Source: an uncultured Verrucomicrobiae bacterium (GTDB lineage Bacteria; Verrucomicrobiota; Verrucomicrobiia; Limisphaerales; Palsa-1400). From it: a DNA stretch of 64,000 nt. Below, piece after piece: positions 47,859-60,918 of the stretch (its first letter is position 1; each line of letters opens with the position of its first letter). The notes under the pieces are model-generated. The model saw only the letters and a program-made list of their open reading frames with translations. It searched no databases and was not told the origin of the DNA. A program made the position numbers and the translations under genes. Location: contig CAVPOM010000004.1 of assembly GCA_963707025.1 (NCBI GenBank), forward strand, positions 1 through 64,000. Reading direction: 5' to 3'.

Positions 47859-48743
47859 ATGAGCCACCACATTCTCCATGTTCTCAAACATGGGTGCGTG
47901 TTGTCCAGAGACCGGGGGTTTTTGGTTTGCCGGGGCGAGGACAAGAGCGAAAACCGCATTCCTTACGAGGATTTGCGCGCGGTCATTATTGCCGCCCGCG
48001 GGGTTACACTCACTTCGAGCTTCGTTTCTGCCGTGCTGGAAACGGATGGAATTATTCTGCATTGCAACGAAAGTTACCAGCCTTGCGGGGTGACCGCTCC
48101 ACTGGGACGGGTGGTTGACACCAGAGCATACCTCCATCAGGCGGAGCGACCGGAGCGCCTGAACAATCGCCTCTGGCAGCATCTCATCCGGGGCAAAACG
48201 CTCAATCAATTGAAGGTGCTCAAGAAGCGGCAGTTGACTTCGCCTCATCTGGAATTGGCCTTGAAGGACGATTATTTCGACGAAGGCAATTGCGCACGGC
48301 GGTACTGGCAGCTTTATTTCCCTTCCATTGGCTGGGTTTCCTCGTCCCGGGACCGCCGGCAGGATAACGCGCCGAACAATATGTTGAATTATGGCTATGC
48401 GGTGCTGTCCGCTCTTTGCCACCGGGGTCTGCTGGTGCATGGGTTGACGCCGCTCCTCGGGGTCAAGCATTGCACGCGCTACCGTGCTGACCCGCTGGTC
48501 TATGATTTGATGGAGCCGTTTCGCCCGGCGGTGGATTTGATGATGGCTGAGTTCATGGTCGGCGAGGATGTCAGCATGAAAGCCTGGTGCAAAAAAGTGG
48601 GAACGCAACTGCGGGAGAAACGGGTGATGCACGAACGGTTTTCCTTGAAAATCATGGACGCGATTGATGCCTCGGCCAATTCTCTGGCGCGCAGTTACAG
48701 CGAAAAGTCGGACAAGCCGTTTTGGGTGCCGGAATTGGAATAG
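47859..48743 (+). CDS. cas1: CRISPR-associated endonuclease Cas1 (type II)
   Basis: EGNCARRYW, N.MLNYGYAVL, GL.P.LG..H, LVYDLMEPFRP.VD. Confidence 0.96.
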   Translation: MSHHILHVLKHGCVLSRDRGFLVCRGEDKSENRIPYEDLRAVIIAARGVTLTSSFVSAVLETDGIILHCNESYQPCGVTAPLGRVVDTRAYLHQAERPERLNNRLWQHLIRGKTLNQLKVLKKRQLTSPHLELALKDDYFDEGNCARRYWQLYFPSIGWVSSSRDRRQDNAPNNMLNYGYAVLSALCHRGLLVHGLTPLLGVKHCTRYRADPLVYDLMEPFRPAVDLMMAEFMVGEDVSMKAWCKKVGTQLREKRVMHERFSLKIMDAIDASANSLARSYSEKSDKPFWVPELE

Positions 48744-48755
48744 GAAAGGCCGCCG

Positions 48756-49112
48756 ATGGCCGTCGAAAAGAAAAGTCCGTTTCGTATGGGGTGGATTCTG
48801 GCCATGTTCGACTTGCCGGTGATGACCGAGCGGGAACGAAAAGCGGCGACAAGGTTCCGCAACGACCTCCTCGACAACGGTTATTTGATGATTCAGTTTT
48901 CCGTGTACGCGCGGCCCTGCGTCAGTTACGATCAGATGGAGGTGCATATCGGGCGGATCAAGGGATTGATTCCCACCGCCGGGAATGTCAGGCTGATGTT
49001 CATGACGGACGAGCAGTGGAAAAAAAGTTACACCGTGATCGGGGAGAATTACAAAGAGGATCGGCGTGCAAAAGACCCCTCCATTCCCAAACAAGTGGAT
49101 TTTTGGGAATAA
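48756..49112 (+). CDS. cas2: CRISPR-associated endonuclease Cas2
   Basis: MFDLPV...FRNDLLDNGYLMIQFSVY...G.VR...TDEQW. Confidence 0.96.
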   Translation: MAVEKKSPFRMGWILAMFDLPVMTERERKAATRFRNDLLDNGYLMIQFSVYARPCVSYDQMEVHIGRIKGLIPTAGNVRLMFMTDEQWKKSYTVIGENYKEDRRAKDPSIPKQVDFWE

Positions 49113-49196
49113 AACTGGCTCCCGGACGTGCTGGGCAGTGGTCCGAGAGCCAATATTTCAGTTAAGGCTTCTCCCCCCGGAGATGCGGGTAACTGT
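49111..49196 (-). ncRNA. Predicted tracrRNA (~85 nt)
   Basis: Anti-repeat at 49161-49192; 3' hairpin ggcucucggac/guccgggagcc (G-U only in - sense) followed by aguuuu; upstream TGGACA-N16-TAGAGT promoter-like sequence. Confidence 0.75.
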
Positions 49197-49233
49197 CTTA
49201 AACTCTACCACATCAAGCCATTCTGTCCAGCCT

Positions 49234-49866
49234 ATTATACCGCGCCTCTCCGGGGGGGGAAGCCAAAACTCCCGAAAATGAAATGCACGCAGTCAAGCGA
49301 TTATACCGCGCCTCTCCGGGGGGGGAAGCCAAAACCTTGGAATGACCACTTCAATCGTGGTGGCAATTATACCGCGCCTCTCCGGGGGGGGAAGCCAAAA
49401 CAGCAAGAGACTTTTGCAATGTAGCACGTTGATTATACCGCGCCTCTCCGGGGGGGGAAGCCAAAACTACGTCAAAACTTAAAAGGCCCGCCCGACTATT
49501 ATACCGCGCCTCTCCGGGGGGGGAAGCCAAAACGGGCGCGCCAATGCCGCAAATCCACCACCCATTATACCGCGCCTCTCCGGGGGGGGAAGCCAAAACT
49601 GGGGTGCTCTCTAGGTCGAGATGGCGGTGATTATACCGCGCCTCTCCGGGGGGGGAAGCCAAAACGGGCGCGCCAATGCCGCAAATCCACCACCCATTAT
49701 ACCGCGCCTCTCCGGGGGGGGAAGCCAAAACTGGGGTGCTCTCTAGGTCGAGATGGCGGTGATTATACCGCGCCTCTCCGGGGGGGGGAAGCCAAAACGA
49801 CGGTCTGGACTATCTGGCGGAGCCGGTCATTATACCGCGCCTCTCCGGGGGGGGGGAAGCCAAAAC
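49234..49866 (-). CRISPR. CRISPR array: 10 repeats (36 nt; last two 37 and 38 nt) and 9 spacers of 30 nt (7 unique)
   Basis: Repeat (- strand) GTTTTGGCTTCCCCCCCCGGAGAGGCGCGGTATAAT; + strand starts at 49234, 49300, 49366, 49432, 49498, 49564, 49630, 49696, 49762, 49829. Confidence 0.99.
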
Positions 49867-50383: not shown

Positions 50384-50743
50384 TTAACTTGCGTCCAAAC
50401 CGAGGGCCTGCCGGCCCTGCGGACTGATCATGCTTTGGTGCCAGGGCGGGTCCCAAACCAGTTCGACATTGGCCTCTTCGATCTGGTCCAGGGCGAGCAG
50501 TTTTTCCTGCACATTGCCGGCAATCTGCCCGCCCAGGTGGCAGCCGGGCGAGGTCAGGGTCATCTTCACGTTGGCCTGGGTTCCCGTCACTGAAACGTCA
50601 TAGACCAGCCCCAAATCCACGATGTTGAGCGGGATTTCCGGGTCAAAACAATGGCGCAGTTGACCCCAAATCAAGTCTTCAATTTCCGCCCGCCTGGCGC
50701 CATTGCCGGGGGCGGAGCCGGACGATGTTGGCTGCGTGTTCAC
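50384..50743 (-). CDS. Metal-sulfur cluster assembly factor (DUF59/SufT-like)
   Basis: DPEIPLNIVDLGLVY, MTLTSPGC, VELVWDPPW; start GTG 50743 inferred. Confidence 0.9.
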   Translation of the reverse strand: MNTQPTSSGSAPGNGARRAEIEDLIWGQLRHCFDPEIPLNIVDLGLVYDVSVTGTQANVKMTLTSPGCHLGGQIAGNVQEKLLALDQIEEANVELVWDPPWHQSMISPQGRQALGLDAS

Positions 50744-50762
50744 AAGCTGATAATATGATAAA

Positions 50763-51797
50763 TTATCGGAGCCTTTCGCGCAAGGCCTGTGCCACCGCAA
50801 TAAAAGCCTGCGCGGCCGGCCCTTCCGGCTGGCCAACCACAACGGGTACCCCGGCGTCGCCACCCACCCGGATTTCCGTAAAAAGGGGGATTTCGCCCAA
50901 AAACGGAATGTTGCGCCGTTGCGCCTCGGAGCGGCCGCCGCCGTGGCCAAAAATCTCCAGGCGCTCGCCGGCGGGTGTGACAAAATAGCTCATATTCTCC
51001 ACGATGCCAAGGATGGGCACATTGACCTTTTCAAACATGGCAATGCCTTTGCGAACGACTCCCAAAGAGGCCTCCTGCGGTGTGGTGACGATGACGCCGC
51101 CATCCAGCGGGACAGTCTGGCACAGGGAGAGTTGGGCGTCGCCGGTGCCCGGCGGCATATCCACCAGCAGAAAATCCAGAGGCGCCCATTCCACTTCGGT
51201 AATGAATTGCTGGATGGCCTTCATAATCATCGGGCCGCGCCAAATCACCGGGGCATCGTCCTCGACCAGGAACCCCATGCTCATCAACTTGACGCCGTGG
51301 CGCGCCGGCGGGACCAGTTTTTCCGCGGCGCTGACGGTGGGTTTATCGCGAATTCCCATCATCAGCGGGATGCTGGGGCCGTAAATATCGCAATCGAGCA
51401 ATCCGACTTGCGCGCCCAGATGCTGCAAAGCGCAGGCCAGATTGACCGAGAGGGTGGACTTGCCCACGCCGCCCTTGCCGCTGGCCACCGCCACCACGCG
51501 ATGGATGCCCGGCAGGTTGTTCTGCTGCGACCAGGCCGTGGCGCCGCCCGGCGCGGGCGAGGCGGCGATTTCGACATGAAGATGCTCCAGCTCCGGGACG
51601 GCGCGGAGAGCTTTCTCGACCTCGCCCTTGATTTGCGCGGCCACGGCGGGACTGCCGCCGGTCAACTGGAGGGAAACGCTGACCGCCCCGGCATTGACGG
51701 CGATGTTTTTGACAATGCCAAAAGAGACAATATCGCGCGAATAGCCCGGATATTTGACCGACTTGAGGGCCTGGGTGACAATTTCCTGATTGAGCAT
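50763..51797 (-). CDS. apbC: Mrp/NBP35 (ApbC) Fe-S carrier ATPase
   Basis: SGKGGVGKST, DCDIYGPS, WRGPM, DMPPGTGD, VTTPQ, GIVENMS. Confidence 0.95.
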   Translation of the reverse strand: MLNQEIVTQALKSVKYPGYSRDIVSFGIVKNIAVNAGAVSVSLQLTGGSPAVAAQIKGEVEKALRAVPELEHLHVEIAASPAPGGATAWSQQNNLPGIHRVVAVASGKGGVGKSTLSVNLACALQHLGAQVGLLDCDIYGPSIPLMMGIRDKPTVSAAEKLVPPARHGVKLMSMGFLVEDDAPVIWRGPMIMKAIQQFITEVEWAPLDFLLVDMPPGTGDAQLSLCQTVPLDGGVIVTTPQEASLGVVRKGIAMFEKVNVPILGIVENMSYFVTPAGERLEIFGHGGGRSEAQRRNIPFLGEIPLFTEIRVGGDAGVPVVVGQPEGPAAQAFIAVAQALRERLR

Positions 51798-52051
51798 AGT
51801 TAGGACATGGTTCTTCGCGCCCGGCGAGGTTAAGGTTCAACGACGGCGGAGCAAAGACAAAAATTTAGCGGCCAGGCCCGTGCGCTGGATGGGTGTGCAA
51901 AGACCTGCCCGCCCAATACTGGCGGCAGTGCCGTCGCCACCAGGGCGGGCTTGCGCCCGTCCGGCTGCATTGCAAGGGCAGGATGGTGAACGCCCCCGGC
52001 AGAGGGGTAAGGAAGGCTTGTTTTTCAGCCGAACGCGGTTATTTTTCCGGC

Positions 52052-52267
52052 ATGAGCAAGATTGAGGAAATCGAGCAAGCCGTCGAGCGATTGCCTTTAA
52101 AAGAGTTCGCCATGCTGGCTGTCTGGGTTGACCGACGCCGCCGGCAGCTTGAAATCCCTGAGCCTGCCACCGACAAATGCCAGGCGGCCGTGCGCGACCA
52201 CAGCGCCTTTCTAAACAGCTACGCCCCTCAAGACGAGGGTCTTTACGACGATGCCGCAGCCCGGTGA
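52052..52267 (+). CDS. Putative antitoxin
   Basis: Small acidic ORF (MSKIEEIEQAVERLP...DEGLYDD) overlapping the downstream toxin start. Confidence 0.6.
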   Translation: MSKIEEIEQAVERLPLKEFAMLAVWVDRRRRQLEIPEPATDKCQAAVRDHSAFLNSYAPQDEGLYDDAAAR

Positions 52268-52574
52268 ATTCTGGCTGGCGGATATTCCTTTCACAACCGG
52301 CGCCGCCTCGAAGCTGCGTCCCGTTTTGGTGCTTTGGACGGATGCGGCTGATGTTGTGGTGGCGGCGGTTACTTCGGCACAGCCGCGTACCAAGACCGAT
52401 GCAGCCTTGCAAAACTGGGCCGGCGCGGGTTTGCGCGTGGCCTCCACCGTAAGACTTTCCCGGCTGGACTGTCTGGAACGACACCTTTTGCGCCGCCGGT
52501 TGGGTGCCCTTGATCCGCTCGATGCCGGGCAGTTGCAGCGCGTTTGGGCGAACGAAATCCGGCTGCGGTTCTGA
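52251..52574 (+). CDS. PemK/MazF-family toxin
   Basis: PGEFWLADIPFT....K.RPVLVL...V.AVTS...AGL...S.VR. Confidence 0.8.
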   Translation: MPQPGEFWLADIPFTTGAASKLRPVLVLWTDAADVVVAAVTSAQPRTKTDAALQNWAGAGLRVASTVRLSRLDCLERHLLRRRLGALDPLDAGQLQRVWANEIRLRF

Positions 52575-52675
52575 CCCTGCGCCAGCGCGCGCCGGCGGGG
52601 GCGGCGGAAGTTCTTGTTGCAATCCGCCTTGGCCGTGTGAACACTCTGCCGGAGGGTTAAATGGACCCTCCTTTT

Positions 52676-53419
52676 ATGATCGAACTGGCCAATCAAATCG
52701 CCGTGGTGACCGGGGCGGGACGGGGCATCGGGCGTGCCATCGCGCTGAAATTTGCGGCGGCGGGGGCGGAGGTGGCGTGCGTTTCGCGCACGGCGGAGAA
52801 TGCGGAAAAAGTGGCGCAGGAAATCCGCGCCCTCGGGCGCAAGGCCTGGGCGCACGCGGTGGACGTGGCCGATGCGGCCGCCGTGGCCGCGGCGGCGGAA
52901 GCGATTCTGGCGGAGGCGGGCCGGGTGGACATTTTGGTCAACAACGCCGGGATCAACCGCGACGGATTGATGATGCGGATGAGCGAGGCGGATTGGGACG
53001 CGGTCTTGGACACAAATTTAAAAGGGGCGTTTTCCTTTACCAAAGGCTTGAGCCGTGCTTTTCTCAGGCAGCGCTCGGGGCGGATCTTGAACATCTCCTC
53101 GGTCATCGGGCTGATGGGCAACGCCGGGCAGTGCAATTATTCGGCCAGCAAGGCCGGGCTGATCGGTTTTACCCGGGCGGCGGCGCGGGAATTCGCCTCG
53201 CGCGGCGTCACGGTCAACGCCCTGGCGCCGGGCTACATTGAAACGGACATGACGGCGGTGATGACGCCGGAAAGCAAGGCGGAGATAGCCCGGCACATCC
53301 CCTTGGGCCGGTTGGGGCGGACGGAAGACATCGCCGCGGCGGCGCTGTTCCTGGCGGGGCCGGGTGCGGCTTACATCACCGGGCAGGTGCTGACGGTGGA
53401 CGGGGGCCTGGTGATGTAG
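52676..53419 (+). CDS. fabG: 3-oxoacyl-ACP reductase
   Basis: [32 protein letters not shown]; upstream of acpP-fabF. Confidence 0.96.
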
Positions 53420-53532
53420 AGCCAGGCGGGCCGGAGGCGCCAGGCGCTTGCGGCGAGAATAAAAATGCAATAGGACTTGACGCCCCCGGCAACCTGGGGC
53501 ATAGAAAAGCCAAACAACAACGGAGTTTACCA

Positions 53533-53778
53533 ATGCCTGAAAAAACAATTGAGGAAAGAGTCAGAGAGATTATCGTTGAACAACTGGGCGTCAACGCTGA
53601 CCAAGTCACCCCCGAAGCCAAATTCATCGAGGATTTGGGAGCTGACTCGCTGGACACGGTGGAATTGGTGATGGCGCTGGAAGAGGAGTTTGGCAACGAA
53701 ATCCCGGACGAGCAGGCCGAGAAGCTGCAAAGCGTGGGGGATGTCATTAAATACATTGAGGACACCCAGAAAAAGTAG
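53533..53778 (+). CDS. acpP: Acyl carrier protein
   Basis: [20 protein letters not shown]. Confidence 0.98.
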
Positions 53779-53797
53779 TGGCTTCGCCCGTTGACGG

Positions 53798-53830
53798 GGC
53801 AGCGCGTCTGACGCCGGGCTGCCTTTTTTT
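53798..53830 (+). terminator. Possible partial intrinsic terminator between acpP and fabF
   Basis: ggcagc...gctgcc stem followed by T7, immediately before the fabF ATG. Confidence 0.5.
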
Positions 53831-55090
53831 ATGGCGCGACACTGGATAGACCGCAGAGTGGTAATCACCGGGCTGGGGGCGGTGTCCTCGCTCGGCCAGA
53901 CCGTCGAGACCTTTTGGAAAAACATACTCGACGGCCAATGCGGCATCCAAGCCATCACCGCTTTCGACGCCTCCGCCTACGACTGCCGGATCGCGGCGCA
54001 AATCAATCAATTCGATCCCAGCCCGGCTTTTCCCTCTCCCAAGGACGTGCGCCGGGCGGATCGCTTCACCCAGTTTTCCGTCTTCGCCGCCCATCAGGCT
54101 CTGCTGGACTCGGGCGCGGACCTGGACAAGGTGGACCGGGACCATGTGGGGGTGTTCATCGGCTCGGGCATCGGCGGATTGCATACCACCGAAGCGCAGC
54201 ACCGCAATCTCCTGAGCAATGGCCCCGGGCGGCTTTCCCCGTTCATGATTCCGATGCTCATTCTCAACATGGGTTCGGGGCTGTTTTCCATCTTCCAGAA
54301 TTTGCGCGGTCCGAATCTGGCCACTTGTTCGGCCTGCGCCACCGCCACCCACGCCTTGGGCGAGGCCTGGCGGACCATCAAAATGGGCGACGCCAACATG
54401 ATGTTTGCCGGGGGCAGCGAAGCGGCCATCATCCCGATGGGCATGGGCGGCTTTTGCGCCATGCGCGCCCTGAGCACGCGCAACGACGATCCGCAACACG
54501 CTTCCCGGCCCTTTGATCTGGACCGGGATGGATTTGTCATGGGGGAAGGCGCCGGGGTGCTCGTGCTGGAAGAATTGGAACACGCCAAGGCGCGCGGCGC
54601 CCGCATTTACGCGGAAATGACCGGTTACGGCAACACCGCCGACGCCAACCATCTCACCGCGCCGTCGCCCGGCGGAGAAGGGGCGGCCCGCTGCATGAGG
54701 ATGGCGCTGCGCTCGGCCGGACTGAACCCTTCGGACATTTCCTACATCAACGCGCACGGCACCTCCACCCAGCAGGGCGACATCGCCGAAACTCAGGCGA
54801 TCAAGTCCGTTTTCGGCGCGGACGCGAAAAAAATCGCGGTCAGCTCCACCAAGGGCGCGACCGGGCACATGTTGGGCGCGGCCGGCGCGGTGGAGATGAT
54901 CCTTTGCGTCAAGGCCATCCAGGCCGGCGTCGTTCCCCCCACCATCAATCTGGAGAAGCCCGATCCGCAATGCGATCTGGACTACGTGCCCGGCGCGGCC
55001 AGGGAAATGAAGGTCGCCGCTGCTGTCAACAATTCCTTCGGTTTCGGCGGCCACAACGCCTCCGTCATCGCCGTCCAGTTCAATGGTTGA
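53831..55090 (+). CDS. fabF: Beta-ketoacyl-ACP synthase II
   Basis: SACAT, RDGFVMGEGAG, NAHGTST, STKG.TGH.LGAAG, NSFGFGGHN. Confidence 0.97.
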   Translation: MARHWIDRRVVITGLGAVSSLGQTVETFWKNILDGQCGIQAITAFDASAYDCRIAAQINQFDPSPAFPSPKDVRRADRFTQFSVFAAHQALLDSGADLDKVDRDHVGVFIGSGIGGLHTTEAQHRNLLSNGPGRLSPFMIPMLILNMGSGLFSIFQNLRGPNLATCSACATATHALGEAWRTIKMGDANMMFAGGSEAAIIPMGMGGFCAMRALSTRNDDPQHASRPFDLDRDGFVMGEGAGVLVLEELEHAKARGARIYAEMTGYGNTADANHLTAPSPGGEGAARCMRMALRSAGLNPSDISYINAHGTSTQQGDIAETQAIKSVFGADAKKIAVSSTKGATGHMLGAAGAVEMILCVKAIQAGVVPPTINLEKPDPQCDLDYVPGAAREMKVAAAVNNSFGFGGHNASVIAVQFNG

Positions 55091-55839: not shown

Positions 55840-56484
55840 ATGAAACGTGAGCATATTCTGGCCGGTCTTTTCCTCGGCCTTTCTCTTTTGCGCCTGCCGG
55901 CCGTGGGACAGGACGCCGCCGCCACCAACGCCGCCGCGGTGGCGGAACAACAAGGCGTGGATGAAAAGTTCAAATCAATGGCCGCCGACATCAAAAGCCT
56001 GCGCGACGCCAACCAGATGCTCCTGGAAAAATTGTCCGCGCTCACCGATGACCTGCGGCAGATTCGCACCGAGCAGGCCCGCCTGGCCGCCACTGCCGTC
56101 GGGCGCGATGACCTCAAGCCGCTGGCCCAACGCATTGAGGAAGTGGACAAGAAACGCCAGGAGGACAAGGAGTCCATTTCAGAGGAGATCAAACAATCGG
56201 CCGCCCGCCTGGAAAAGCTGCTGACCAGCGCCCCCGAGATTTCGCCCAAGCCTCCGCCCATCAAACCGGCCCCCGGCGCGCCGCCGGCCGCGGAGGACGG
56301 ATTCAGTTATACGATCAAAGACGGCGACAGACTGCTGGACATTGTCAACGCCTACAACGCCGACTTCAAAAGCAAAGGGATGAAGACCATCACCTTGAAA
56401 CAGGCCATGCAGGCCAATCCGGAGGTGGATTGGACCCGTTTGAAAATCGGCCAAAAAATCGTCATTCCCCATCCGCCGGAGTAA
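55840..56484 (+). CDS. Secreted coiled-coil + LysM domain protein
   Basis: Signal peptide, heptad region, Y.IKDGD.L..I...ANP....LKIGQKI.IP. Confidence 0.85.
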   Translation: MKREHILAGLFLGLSLLRLPAVGQDAAATNAAAVAEQQGVDEKFKSMAADIKSLRDANQMLLEKLSALTDDLRQIRTEQARLAATAVGRDDLKPLAQRIEEVDKKRQEDKESISEEIKQSAARLEKLLTSAPEISPKPPPIKPAPGAPPAAEDGFSYTIKDGDRLLDIVNAYNADFKSKGMKTITLKQAMQANPEVDWTRLKIGQKIVIPHPPE

Positions 56485-56496
56485 CCGGCCGCCCTC

Positions 56497-56973
56497 ATGC
56501 AAATCACCCGCGCAGGCGAATACGGCGTTTTGGGCCTGATGAATCTGGCCCGGCGCGCTCCCGGCGAAATGGCCATGATCGAAGAGGTCAGCCGGATGGA
56601 GAAAATACCGGGCAGCTTTCTGGCCAAAATTTTCCAGCATCTGGTCAAAGCCGGCCTGGTCCGTTCCAACCGGGGCGCGCACGGCGGTTTTGCGCTGGCC
56701 CGCAACCCGGCGCAAATCACCGTGCTGGAGATTATTGAAGCGATCGAAGGCAAAATTATTTTCCAGCGTTGCAAACTGGACAAGCCGGACTGTCAACACG
56801 TCGGCGGTTGCGCGGTCTGCGGCTTGTTTGAACAGGCGCAGGACGGGGTCAAAGAGGTGCTGGCGCGCACCAGCCTGGGCGGCCTGCTGGCTCGGAAGAT
56901 GCCGGCGCCCGCGCTGGCTTCCCCCGCCCGCCGCCGCCACCGCCCGAGCCTGGGGCGCGCGCGCCGCCCATGA
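56497..56973 (+). CDS. Rrf2-family regulator (IscR/NsrR-like)
   Basis: EYG...L, FLAKIFQ.L.KAGLV.S.RG..GGF.LAR, C-x6-C-x5-C-x2-C. Confidence 0.92.
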   Translation: MQITRAGEYGVLGLMNLARRAPGEMAMIEEVSRMEKIPGSFLAKIFQHLVKAGLVRSNRGAHGGFALARNPAQITVLEIIEAIEGKIIFQRCKLDKPDCQHVGGCAVCGLFEQAQDGVKEVLARTSLGGLLARKMPAPALASPARRRHRPSLGRARRP

Positions 56974-57386
56974 AGCCGGCCCCGGCTCTTTACAATCCCA
57001 CCGTGCTGGATCATTTCCTGAACCCGCGCAACGTGGGGGAAGTGCCGCAAGCCGAGGCGCTGGGCCAAGCGGGCGAACCCAATTGCGGCGACACCATGCG
57101 GCTGAGCCTGCGCATCCAGGACGGCAGGATTGTGGACGCACGGTTCCGAACCCTGGGCTGCGGCGCGGCCATCGCCAGTTCCAGCATGGCGACCGAATTG
57201 CTCAAAGGCAGGACGGTGGAGGAGGCGCGGCATTTTTCCAACGAGGAGGTGGTGGCGGCGTTGGGGGGATTGCCGCCCGCCAAGCGCCAATGCTCCGTCC
57301 TGGCCGGGCAAGCCCTGCGCGCCGCGCTGGCAGATTATGACAGAAGGCGTCCCGGCGCGGACGCCCCCCGCCGGCCCGGCCGCTGA
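56970..57386 (+). CDS. iscU: IscU/NifU-N-like Fe-S scaffold
   Basis: DHF.NPRNVG, CGD, GCGAAIASSS, LPPAKRQCS. Confidence 0.88.
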   Translation: MKPAPALYNPTVLDHFLNPRNVGEVPQAEALGQAGEPNCGDTMRLSLRIQDGRIVDARFRTLGCGAAIASSSMATELLKGRTVEEARHFSNEEVVAALGGLPPAKRQCSVLAGQALRAALADYDRRRPGADAPRRPGR

Positions 57387-57398
57387 ACCGTCCCGCCG

Positions 57399-58577
57399 AT
57401 GCGCCACGTTTATTTAGACCACCAGTCCGCCACGCCCGTTTTGCCGGAGGTTCTGGAGGCGATGCAGCCGTTTTTCACCGAGGCTTATGGGAACCCTTCT
57501 TCGTTGCACCGGCACGGCTTGCTCGCCCGCGACGCCCTCGACAAGGCCCGCGCGCAGATCGCCGCCTTCATCAACGCGGCCGCGCCCGAAGAAATCATCT
57601 TTACTTCCGACGGGACCGAAGCCGGCAACCTGGCCGTCAAAGGAGCCGCCGCCGCCAATGAGCGCAGCGGCAACCATCTTATCATCAGCGCCACCGAACA
57701 CCCGGCCGTGATCGCCTCGGCCGAATACCTGGAAAGCCGCGGCTTTGCCTGCACCCGCCTGAAAGTGGACGCGGAGGGCGTGGTTGATCCCGGCAACGTC
57801 CGCTCCGCCATTATTGACAAGACGATTTTAATCGCCGTCCATCACGTCAACCATGAGATCGGCACGATTGAGCCGGTGCGGGAAATCGGCGCCCTGGCCA
57901 GGGAGCGCGGCATTGCCTTTTATGTGGATGCCGAGGCCAGCGCCGGCTGGCTGCCCATGGATGCGCAGGACTGGGGCGCCAGCCTGCTTTCCTTTTCCCC
58001 GCACCGCTTTTACGGGCCAAAAGGCGTGGGCGTCCTGTATCAAAATCGGCGCACCCGCCTGGCCGCAATGCTGCACGGGGGCGACCAGGAAGACGGGCGG
58101 CGGGCCGGAGTGGAGAACGTGCCGGCCATTGTCGGGGCGGGCGCGGCGGCGGAAATCGCCGGACGCGAACTGGCGCAACGCCGCGCCCACTGCGCCCGTT
58201 TGCAGCGGCGGCTGTGGGACGGTTTGCGCGCCAAAATTCCCCATATCAAGCTCAACGGCCCCGAACCTGGACCCGGCCGCCATCCGGGCACCTTGAACAT
58301 TTCCACCGAATTCATCGAAGGCGAAGCGCAATTATTGCTGTGCGACATGCAGGGCATCGCGGTGGCCAGTGGTTCCAGTTGCGTGAGCCGGTCGCGGCAA
58401 ATCTCCCACGTCCTCGCCGCCATCGGTCTGGACCCGGCGCTGGCCCGCGGCAACATCATCCTCTCCCTGGGCCGGGACAACACGGAGGAGGACGTGGACT
58501 ACGTGATCGAGACCTTCCCGAAAATCGTCGCCAAACTTCGCGCCCTCTCCCCCGCCTGGCAGGACAAACCCATCTGA
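57399..58577 (+). CDS. IscS/NifS-like cysteine desulfurase homolog lacking the PLP lysine
   Basis: YLD...TP, YGNPSSLH, EH, N.EIG, SPHRFYGPKG (R at the K position), SGSSC. Confidence 0.85.
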   Translation: MRHVYLDHQSATPVLPEVLEAMQPFFTEAYGNPSSLHRHGLLARDALDKARAQIAAFINAAAPEEIIFTSDGTEAGNLAVKGAAAANERSGNHLIISATEHPAVIASAEYLESRGFACTRLKVDAEGVVDPGNVRSAIIDKTILIAVHHVNHEIGTIEPVREIGALARERGIAFYVDAEASAGWLPMDAQDWGASLLSFSPHRFYGPKGVGVLYQNRRTRLAAMLHGGDQEDGRRAGVENVPAIVGAGAAAEIAGRELAQRRAHCARLQRRLWDGLRAKIPHIKLNGPEPGPGRHPGTLNISTEFIEGEAQLLLCDMQGIAVASGSSCVSRSRQISHVLAAIGLDPALARGNIILSLGRDNTEEDVDYVIETFPKIVAKLRALSPAWQDKPI

Positions 58578-58610: not shown

Positions 58611-58668
58611 GGAGCATACGCGCCCTCGCGTGTGGCGGCCGGCGCCCTCGCCGGCCGCTTTTCTTTTG
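58611..58668 (+). repeat. GGAG-headed double hairpin (REP-like), possibly acting as a terminator
   Basis: catacgcg-ccct-cgcgtgtg and gcggccggcg-ccct-cgccggccgc, followed by ttttctttt. Confidence 0.6.
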
Positions 58669-59112: not shown

Positions 59113-60396
59113 TCAGGGGAAGCCGAGGCCGTAGAAGCGTCCTGAACTGTTTCCCTGCAGTGGTTCGCTGTAATGAAACAAGCCGTTGACGAGCGTGTTC
59201 GTCGTCAGCGGAACCCAATCTGCGTTGGCCAGATTTGTACAGACTTCCACCACGACGGCAAAATCATTCGAAGCCGTGATGTCGAACCCAAATTGATTAT
59301 TCCTCATCCCAAAACCACCGTCGCCGGTTTGAATCACCGGATTCCAAAGCACAGGGGACAGCCCGCCGAAAGGGGAACTCCATCCGGTCGTGCCAGGCAA
59401 ATAATAGACCGCCGCATCGTTGTCAGGAGAGAACACATTCGAGCCAAGGGTGGGAGCGTCGCCCGTGAAATACACGCTCCGCAGGTTCGTGGAGTTATTG
59501 AACGCATAATCTCCGATGCTGGTGACGCTGCCGAGCACCGTGACGCTGGTCAGGCTTTGGCACATGAGGAACGCACTGCCCCCAATGCTGGTGACGCTGC
59601 CGGGAATGGTCACGCTGGTGAGGCCGCTCTGCTCGAACGCACCGTCCCCGATGCTGGTCACCCCGCCGGGAATCGTCACGCGAGTCAAGTTGGTGCAGTA
59701 ACCGAATGCCAACTCTCCGATGTTAGTGAGGCTGCCGGGAATCGTCACGCTGGTCAGGCTGGTGCAGGAAAAGAACGCCTGAACTCCGATCTCGGGCACA
59801 CCGTTGCCAATCGTGACGCTGGCCAGGTTGGTGCAGGCATCGAAGGCATCCAATCCGATGTTGGTGACGCTGCCGGGAATCGTCACGCTGGTCAGGCCAG
59901 AGTCAGCGAATGCCTCATCCCCGATGCTGCCTACGCCATTGACAATGATGACGTTTGTCAGGTTGTTGCACTCACCGAAAGCATTATACCCTATGCTGCT
60001 AACGCTTCCAGGAATCGTCACGCCCTCAAGATCAACACATCTGAAAAACGCAAAATCTCCGATGTTAGTCAGGCTGCCCAGAATCGTGACATTGGTCAAG
60101 TCGGTGCAGACCTCAAACGCATTCGCTTCAACACTGGTGACGCCGGAGGGAATCATGACCTCGGTTATGAGGGAGCCGCCGGAATTGCCAAAAACGTCGC
60201 TGAACGCGCCATGCCCGATAATGGTCACGGTCAGGCCGTTGGTGGTGGGTGGAATCGCCACGGCCCCTCCAGTCCCCGTATATTGGGTAATGGCGATGGT
60301 ATTGTCGGCATTTGTAGAAATAACGAATTGGGCTTGCACCGCCGCCGGTGCGGCCAGTACCAGTGAGCCTAAAATGATGGGCCAGGTTTTTTTCAT
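59113..60396 (-). CDS. BspA-like LRR_5 surface protein
   Basis: Signal peptide MKKTWPIILGSLVLAAPAAVQA; IPGSVT.IG..AF..C.LT repeats; paralog of 11799..13583. Confidence 0.9.
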   Translation of the reverse strand: MKKTWPIILGSLVLAAPAAVQAQFVISTNADNTIAITQYTGTGGAVAIPPTTNGLTVTIIGHGAFSDVFGNSGGSLITEVMIPSGVTSVEANAFEVCTDLTNVTILGSLTNIGDFAFFRCVDLEGVTIPGSVSSIGYNAFGECNNLTNVIIVNGVGSIGDEAFADSGLTSVTIPGSVTNIGLDAFDACTNLASVTIGNGVPEIGVQAFFSCTSLTSVTIPGSLTNIGELAFGYCTNLTRVTIPGGVTSIGDGAFEQSGLTSVTIPGSVTSIGGSAFLMCQSLTSVTVLGSVTSIGDYAFNNSTNLRSVYFTGDAPTLGSNVFSPDNDAAVYYLPGTTGWSSPFGGLSPVLWNPVIQTGDGGFGMRNNQFGFDITASNDFAVVVEVCTNLANADWVPLTTNTLVNGLFHYSEPLQGNSSGRFYGLGFP

Positions 60397-60918
60397 TTCT
60401 GAGCGATGGTCATTGTATTTTGAGCCTTGTCCGGTCATTTTGGGACTCCGTTGGTGTACAAGGTTGCCAGTTGATCGTAGCCGCTCCTTTGAGAAGGTAA
60501 CGGCGGACCGCACCGGCGTCAAACTTAAAAGCCAGTTCCTTGCGGCACAGAATTTACTCTCATCTCCATAAACTGCGGCCTTCCAAGCCTTCGAGACGCG
60601 GGGCATACAGTCGCAATTCCCGCGCTCTTTCCTCGCCTTCGCGGACAATTCCAGGACTCAATGGCGTTGAAGCCACCCGGTTCATCCGCCTTCGCAGGGC
60701 CTCCTGTTCAAACCTCCTGTTCATTCCGCATTTTCTTTAAAACCGGCCTTGACAAAAATTAGAACCTATGGTTGAGTTGCCAGCGTGAGACACGTAGGCA
60801 CAGCCGCAAGCCGCCTCCCGGAGGTTGCGCCCGGCGCAGGCGTCGAGGGCGGGGAAAGATCCCCGGCACCTTGCCATGCGCGCCACCACCGAAATGGATG
60901 GCGGTCCGTTCTAGTTGT

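Follow-up and report, generated by a model that had tools for sequence, protein, structure and literature searches.

A conserved IscS homologue without the Schiff-base lysine in an Rrf2-linked operon of Verrucomicrobiota: very probably a maintained non-desulfurase tied to iron-sulfur metabolism

The window analysed here, a stretch of 64,000 nucleotides at the start of contig CAVPOM010000004.1 from an uncultured Verrucomicrobiae bacterium (GenBank assembly GCA_963707025.1; source genome G000), carries an operon on the forward strand whose last gene (57399..58577) encodes a full-length, IscS-fold protein of 392 amino acids without the active-site set of a desulfurase. The frame is uninterrupted, and its lysine-less, IscS-like product is called IscS* below. 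As a preliminary description of this DNA had stated, iscS* shares an operon with rrf2 and iscU; both lie 5' of it. The start of the iscU scaffold gene (56970..57386, forward strand) overlaps the rrf2 stop, and its product matches TIGR03419 best, at 159 bits, which is below the cut-off of 187.9. The rrf2 gene (56497..56973, forward strand) encodes an Rrf2-family regulator that scores above the TIGR00738 cut-off and contains four cysteines (C-x6-C-x5-C-x2-C). A gene without a Pfam or NCBIfam family (55840..56484, forward strand) ends 12 bases 5' of rrf2 and occupies the place of the promoter and operator found in relatives; it is probably co-transcribed with the rrf2 operon and unrelated to it in function. 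A terminator-like hairpin, recognised by consensus match only, ends the operon (58634..58659, forward strand). The gene for the Fe-S carrier ATPase Mrp/ApbC (50763..51797, reverse strand) is next to a SufT-domain gene, the pair spanning 50384-51797; mrp is 4.7 kb from rrf2 and on the opposite strand here, and directly 3' of iscS* in many relatives.

Several other features surround the operon. A fabG-acpP-fabF-like run upstream (52661-55090) is syntenic in three genomes of the genus and elsewhere unrelated to the operon, and a gene for a leucine-rich-repeat surface protein (59113-60648, reverse strand) lies past the terminator; one further member of the genus likewise has it 3' of iscS*. In the list of open reading frames, cas1- and cas2-like frames stand ahead of a repeat array (47859-49800). 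Small toxin-antitoxin-like or DUF488 genes are present at 51893-52574 and at loci L005 and L034 (5897-6274), L037, L038 and L411; they are repeated insertions between iscU and iscS* or nearby, and in genome G373 the insert disrupts iscU.

Alignment with E. coli IscS places Arg203 of IscS* (codon CGC, 58005..58007) at the Schiff-base residue Lys206, which confirms the replacement that the preliminary description had pointed out; the intact frame, the TSDGTE, DAEAS and RAGVEN motifs and the cysteine of SGSSC are likewise as it described them. Other replacements in the alignment are Gln183 by Ala180 (57936..57938), Thr243 by Val238 and Gly74 by Asp71 (57609..57611), as well as two that the description overlooked, Asn155 by His152 (57852..57854) and Arg354, at the substrate-carboxylate position, by Ile354 (58458..58460). 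All of these codons are on the forward strand, as is that of the loop cysteine Cys328 (58380..58382), which aligns with E. coli Cys328. Also retained are E. coli His104 and Asp180 (His101 and Asp177 in the numbering of IscS*), Ser203 and His205. We take Gln183, Asn155 and Asp180 to be active-site positions of IscS; Gly74 presumably belongs to the phosphate-binding turn at residues 74-76, and Thr243 is assumed to complete the PLP site of the partner subunit. According to one review, the catalytic residues that cysteine desulfurases strictly conserve are Lys, Arg, His and Cys, and the Arg binds the substrate carboxylate (PMC8918507).

The AlphaFold model of IscS* has a pLDDT of 90.9, with the Cys loop (residues 327-332) below 50, and matches NFS1, E. 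coli IscS and Archaeoglobus fulgidus IscS at TM scores of 0.91-0.94. IscS* has the fold-type I class V fold with the long Cys loop, together with the conserved His (His101) and catalytic Cys (Cys328) of type I desulfurases, and lacks both their Schiff-base Lys and their substrate-carboxylate Arg. It scores below every NCBIfam cut-off, including those of TIGR03402, the best family (436 of 530.75 bits), and TIGR02006 (360.5 of 643.2 bits). With two defining residues missing, IscS* is outside the active IscS/NifS family. Based on the known mechanism and the A. fulgidus precedent described below, it is likely to be inactive as a desulfurase. The closest solved sequences (PDB 9WEP, 9WER, 9WEW, 9WFE and others) are a Lys-bearing desulfurase of 406 amino acids and its variants, of which 9WFE is altered at the Thr76, Gln183 and Arg354 positions.

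These features are conserved well beyond the source genome. Among the 120 best homologues (70-100% identity, query included) residue 203 is Arg in 112 and Lys in 8, Cys328 is present in all 120, and neither Gln at 180 nor Arg at 354 occurs in any; the named homologues belong to Verrucomicrobiota, one of them to Pedosphaera. Sequencing error as the source of Arg203 is ruled out by the 112 homologues with Arg and by the codons of 29 orthologues, in which all four CGN triplets are used, and for the same reasons the residue changes in IscS* are not attributable to chance. An orthologue is found in 30 of 41 relatives; across the order iscS* occurs as a single copy in 70 of 121 genomes, and of 200 genomes from elsewhere in the phylum 2 have it. 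In a set of 53 orthologues from distinct genomes, from which a split copy in G019 was excluded, residue 203 is Arg in 45, Lys in seven and Thr in one. Cys328, His101 and Asp177 are kept in all 53, and Gln183, Asn155 and Arg354 (E. coli numbering) in none, the rest of the site being absent also from the seven orthologues with Lys203. Asp71 is present in 43 of the 53, Thr76, Ser203 and His205 (E. coli numbering) in 50-52, and Thr at the Thr243 position in only 28. IscU contacts IscS at Glu309-Ala316, Glu347 and Arg379-Lys391, and the Cys328 loop is a mobile shuttle, according to PMC2854127. Glu309, Glu311, Leu380, Arg381 and Ser384 are kept in 53 of 53 IscS* orthologues; the canonical paralogue, too, retains the docking residues, at 81-95%.

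The median dN/dS (Nei-Gojobori) is 0.175 for iscS* compared with 0.148 for the canonical paralogue (210 pairs, 21 genomes), the dN of iscS* is 1.3 times that of the paralogue, and within the genus dN/dS is 0.13-0.23 (10 pairs). Single-copy conservation and purifying selection indicate that iscS* is not decaying, and a pseudogene is rejected on the grounds of open frame, conservation and dN/dS. The preliminary description had proposed a maintained pseudoenzyme, which conservation, dN/dS and the joint loss of four active-site residues support; its own counter-scenario, in which close homologues would all keep Lys and this copy would be decaying, does not agree with the predominance of Arg and the low dN/dS. 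It had also raised rescue by the Lys of GPKG. That is unlikely, since the same Lys is ordinary in canonical proteins (88 of 94) and is not invariant in IscS*, being replaced in 3 of the 53 orthologues. Overall, IscS* is very probably a maintained non-desulfurase tied to Fe-S metabolism.

Regulation points in the same metabolic direction. The palindrome GGAC-N7-GTCC is located just 3' of a TTGACA-N17-TAxxxT promoter upstream of rrf2 in 20 of 31 regions, and it is absent in the source genus, where another gene abuts rrf2. The same palindrome, at the same position after the -10 box, precedes suf in 17 of 17 genomes of the family for which sufficient upstream sequence is available, including G000 (C18:563133, locus L003; the other sites are in L351-L368), with scores of 16-26 compared with at most 6.2 for coding controls. 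Outside this count are G028, G034, G035 and G040, which have no sufB in the region, and G011, with 110 bases upstream; in other families the suf operator was found in none of seven genomes. There are two exceptions to the pairing of site and regulator, G024 having the site with rrf2 not found and G030 having rrf2 and no site, and the remaining top operator matches in G000 have no Fe-S context by eye. We infer that the Rrf2 of the iscS* operon binds GGAC-N7-GTCC, as a repressor of that operon in relatives and of suf; the sites are probably an IscR-like regulon of the four-Cys Rrf2.

The source genome has further Fe-S genes. A search for canonical desulfurases elsewhere in G000, which the preliminary description had proposed, finds two orphan IscS-type genes (C4:363907 and C3:30407) and one sufS, the latter in a full suf locus that also encodes SufU, SufT, a rhodanese and another IscU-like protein. 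In that locus (C18:556160-559410; L003:6162-9406) this second IscU-type protein, encoded after the rhodanese and additional to SufU, has all cluster ligands; the rhodanese-IscU pair after sufS is absent in G014, G016 and G024. The operon IscU of G000 keeps three Cys and the Asp, and its ligand His is replaced by Gln107. This change is common to all six genus members examined, two of which have also lost the first Cys; the operon IscU proteins of other families are 85-100% alike.

The distribution of iscS* across genomes is complementary to that of SUF. SufBD was not found in 26 genomes, namely six of the first set (G006, G029, G031, G036, G037 and G039; 81-97% complete) and 20 of 73 further genomes, the latter being all 61 new genomes with IscS* and 12 without, with 31 no-match genomes outside the count. 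All six of the first set have IscS* and an intact operon IscU, and the 20 have IscS* in every case and an operon-type IscU in 19, which gives 26/26 and 25/26 for incomplete metagenome-assembled genomes whose kin are not independent; about a dozen families are represented. Genomes without IscS* have SUF in 21 of 21 cases (nine of the first set, 12 further), and an operon-type IscU occurs in none of the 12. The canonical paralogue is present in 19 of the 20 SUF-less genomes tested and another canonical IscS-type in the twentieth, and two genomes of 2.6 Mb have only the canonical paralogue, IscS* and one IscU. Where SUF and IscS* coexist, the operon IscU is mostly lost or drifting and iscS* stays: an operon-type IscU is found in 7 of 41 such further genomes, so that IscS* is retained without it in 34 of these 41 and in 18 of 23 of the first set, and one SUF genome has an interrupted iscU remnant. 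In G014, G016 and G024 SufU is the sole NifU_N-family member. IscU therefore cannot be the sole partner of IscS*. The mrp gene is 3' of iscS* in 15 of 24 further loci, and among named loci it adjoins 5 of 12 Lys-less genes and none of 68 Lys-bearing ones.

Lys-less IscS proteins form a wider family. In a set of the best 150 representatives at 50% identity, the Lys is missing from 48, of which 32 have Arg in its place; 47 of the 48 have the Cys, the remaining one not being covered, one has Gln183 and four have Arg354, compared with 99 and 100, respectively, of the 102 with Lys. A FastTree phylogeny of 240 rows contains three Lys-less groups: the archaeal, A. fulgidus-like SSND type; two Rokubacteria-like rows in which the other residues are retained; and a bacterial clade of 64 rows, 49 of which form an Arg subclade. 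With 28 trait columns removed, the 15 sampled bacterial Lys-less rows still cluster (98/95), with one canonical-motif row inside. The AU test rejects an origin shared with three SSND proxies (p-AU 0.0038; 40 rows, LG+G4), A. fulgidus IscS being represented in the tree by these proxies of its lineage and compared in its own sequence in the alignment only. The IscS* lineage thus appears to have arisen separately from that of A. fulgidus, inside the bacterial Lys-less group (AU p=0.004). The Rokubacteria proteins (L130, P0193), encoded in an E. coli-type isc operon, have Leu or Met at the Lys position with Gln183, Asn155 and Arg354 kept, and are a third, separate Lys loss.

The non-Arg members of the bacterial clade, in which residue 203 is Gln, Met, Ser or others, are associated with sulfur carriers. 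Searches with E. coli TusA, and equally with a query taken from a Lys-less locus, place tusA next to 53 of 67 metagenome, 5 of 12 named-genome and 5 of 7 Dehalococcoidia-related loci of this kind, compared with 0 of 13, 0 of 68 and 0 of 16 Lys-bearing loci in the matching sets; a paralogue-locus set overlapping the named-genome set was excluded. The dsrE2 gene adjoins 24 of the 67 metagenome loci. Neither gene was found beside iscS* in 20 loci of the order studied here, and a search of G000 detected no DsrE2. True TusA was rejected as a sulfur donor in this order, as the Pfam matches, in 12 of 38 genomes, are weak, one strong match apart. No canonical desulfurase was found among the class V proteins of five sister-group genomes, for which completeness is not given. 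One locus (L084:3204-6718) is a single run moaD-moaE-iscS*-tusA-mrp, with a Lys-less IscS beside molybdopterin sulfur-carrier genes, and the deltaproteobacterial genome G244 (L146, L147, L150, L140) has three Lys-less IscS genes, two with iscU and one with dsrE2-tusA, in addition to one canonical iscS-iscU. In the accessible literature, which excludes most subscription journals, we found neither a description of this clade or an experiment on any member nor a bacterial Lys-less IscS with tusA or dsrE2.

The nearest functional precedent is A. fulgidus IscS. As the review describes it, this protein is inactive, has Asp in place of Lys, binds PMP and provides its Cys as the fourth ligand of the IscU cluster, its sulfur source being stated as open (PMC8918507). 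Its structures (PDB 4EB5, 4EB7 and 4HVK; D199K, 4R5F) share the IscS fold with IscS* (TM 0.91-0.93, 4EB5 0.93; 42-43% identity), and in both proteins the Schiff-base Lys and Gln183 are replaced (DATAS in A. fulgidus), the loop Cys is kept and IscU is a neighbour. The two differ in that A. fulgidus IscS has Asp instead of Arg and keeps Asn155, whereas the order with IscS* also has active IscS paralogues, linkage to mrp and the Rrf2 operator. IscS* accordingly has the Lys loss, loop Cys and IscU neighbour of the A. fulgidus type without common descent with the SSND lineage. Methanosarcina acetivorans IscS1 (MA0808) also lacks the catalytic Lys, coexists with an active IscS2 and is paired with IscU (PMC7585200); it is archaeal and uncharacterised, and is likened to IscS* by description. 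Because these two Lys-less IscS proteins are already published, IscS* is not a new kind. Of the non-canonical Fe-S assembly module envisaged in the preliminary description, the part that finds support is the Fe-S assembly role, through synteny, the operator common with suf and the SUF-complementary distribution. The MIS system (MisS-MisU) is defined by an active desulfurase (PMC13066941). It and the NifS/IscS type I systems (TIGR03402, TIGR02006) resemble this locus in a minimal rrf2/iscS/iscU set without chaperones. As to the MIS trait of a desulfurase-scaffold gene pair lacking carriers and chaperones, the pair exists here, but its desulfurase copy is presumably dead, the active IscS is encoded elsewhere as an orphan, and mrp frequently adjoins the operon. 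The tusA/dsrE2-linked Lys-less IscS proteins of Nitrospirota, Chloroflexota and Deltaproteobacteria belong to the same clade, with the same losses and the Cys kept; they mostly have Gln at the Lys site, while the IscS* order has mrp and neither tusA nor dsrE2.

Conservation of the docking residues, the A. fulgidus precedent, the losses at the active site, purifying selection, the SUF-complementary distribution and the operator common with suf lead us, with modest confidence, to see IscS* as a non-catalytic protein that docks the scaffold and donates a Cys in Fe-S assembly, and that would depend on a separate sulfur source. IscS* would then work like A. fulgidus IscS without being of its lineage. 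The operon would be an Rrf2-controlled Fe-S assembly unit, ancestrally in the order rrf2-iscU-iscS*-mrp, with IscS* as its non-catalytic member. An IscU-type scaffold would dock at the C-terminal surface of the retained IscS fold, and Cys328 on its flexible loop may be a ligand of the nascent [2Fe-2S] cluster, a persulfide way-station or both. IscS* itself would release no sulfur from cysteine; the donor here may be the orphan, fully canonical IscS paralogue (G000:C4:363907), and in the sister group TusA/DsrE2 carriers or sulfide are the probable source. The pocket may retain a B6 vitamer, bound non-covalently. Since G000 has SUF and its cognate IscU is drifting, the working partner in this genome may be the suf-linked IscU-like protein or Mrp. 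The presence of the docking residues in the canonical paralogue means that the paralogue could serve IscU alone, in which case IscS* would be a regulator or holdase. It is possible, though doubtful, that SUF-less Verrucomicrobia have a split desulfurase system, in which one IscU requires a dedicated dead IscS for docking and as the fourth ligand while an unlinked active IscS supplies the sulfur in trans. Once SUF had arrived, IscU would have been dropped, and the dead IscS would have stayed on in the Rrf2-suf regulon to sense sulfur or clusters.

A sensing or regulatory subunit acting independently of IscU, which would inform the four-Cys Rrf2 of the state of sulfur or clusters, or hold clusters and pass them on to Mrp, is unlikely. 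The CymR-CysK pair provides a model for such a subunit, loss of iscU has reduced the operon to rrf2-iscS* in 11 of 30 loci of the first set, and mrp linkage, the Rrf2 operator at suf and the retention of IscS* where SufU is the only scaffold found would all fit. However, rrf2 also adjoins canonical iscS, in 21 of 68 loci, so that adjacency needs co-regulation only; moreover, rrf2 and iscS* are unlinked in G009, G013, G015 and G017, and an rrf2 orthologue was not found in G024, G025, G027 and G038, all of which have IscS*. It is quite unlikely that IscS* instead pairs with the orphan active IscS as the silent subunit of a heterodimer, adding the surface that faces the partner, another mobile Cys and the site where IscU docks, and so steering sulfur from the active subunit to Fe-S assembly. 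A canonical IscS-type protein is present in all Verrucomicrobial genomes with IscS* that were examined, and the 232-245 loop (Gly232, Gly233, Glu236, Arg240, Gly242) is 100% kept in 29 orthologues while residues of its own site are lost, but homodimer stability accounts equally well for that loop, the Thr at the Thr243 position is kept in only about half of the orthologues and the genes are unlinked. The preliminary description had suggested a heterodimer partner, and if the partnership is taken as obligatory, the five sister-group genomes argue against it.

A B6 enzyme with a new chemistry, using PMP or PLP non-covalently with no need for Lys, is improbable. PMP-dependent sugar dehydrases carry out B6 chemistry without Lys, and the constancy of His104 and Asp180, the near-constancy of Thr76, Ser203 and His205, a basic residue 203 in 52 of the 53 orthologues and the newly conserved Asp71 and His152 would suit such a protein, but residue 203 varies freely in the sister group, Asp71 is located at the phosphate turn and the neighbours are solely Fe-S and sulfur-carrier genes. 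The binding of PMP by A. fulgidus IscS, the reason for which is given as not known (PMC8918507), also favours it. A decaying copy, or a desulfurase still active through another Lys, is very improbable: the elevated dN, the drifting IscU of the source genus and the split G019 orthologue are outweighed by the open single-copy frame, the within-genus dN/dS, the unremarkable GPKG Lys and an Arg354 that is never present, and because sufD of G019 is split as well, assembly indels are indicated there.

The function and sulfur source of Lys-less IscS are treated as open in two reviews, with evidence from one thermophilic archaeon (PMC8918507, PMC13066941). The IscS* lineage adds mesophilic genomes whose only recognisable machinery for Fe-S assembly consists of IscU, IscS* and one orphan active IscS; a system of these three proteins could be rebuilt in vitro or in E. 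coli. Since sources label IscS* proteins 'cysteine desulfurase', automatic annotation over-counts these enzymes. For the family itself, the lineage indicates that loss of the Lys recurred in bacteria and persisted across an order, and that IscS* outlives its scaffold.
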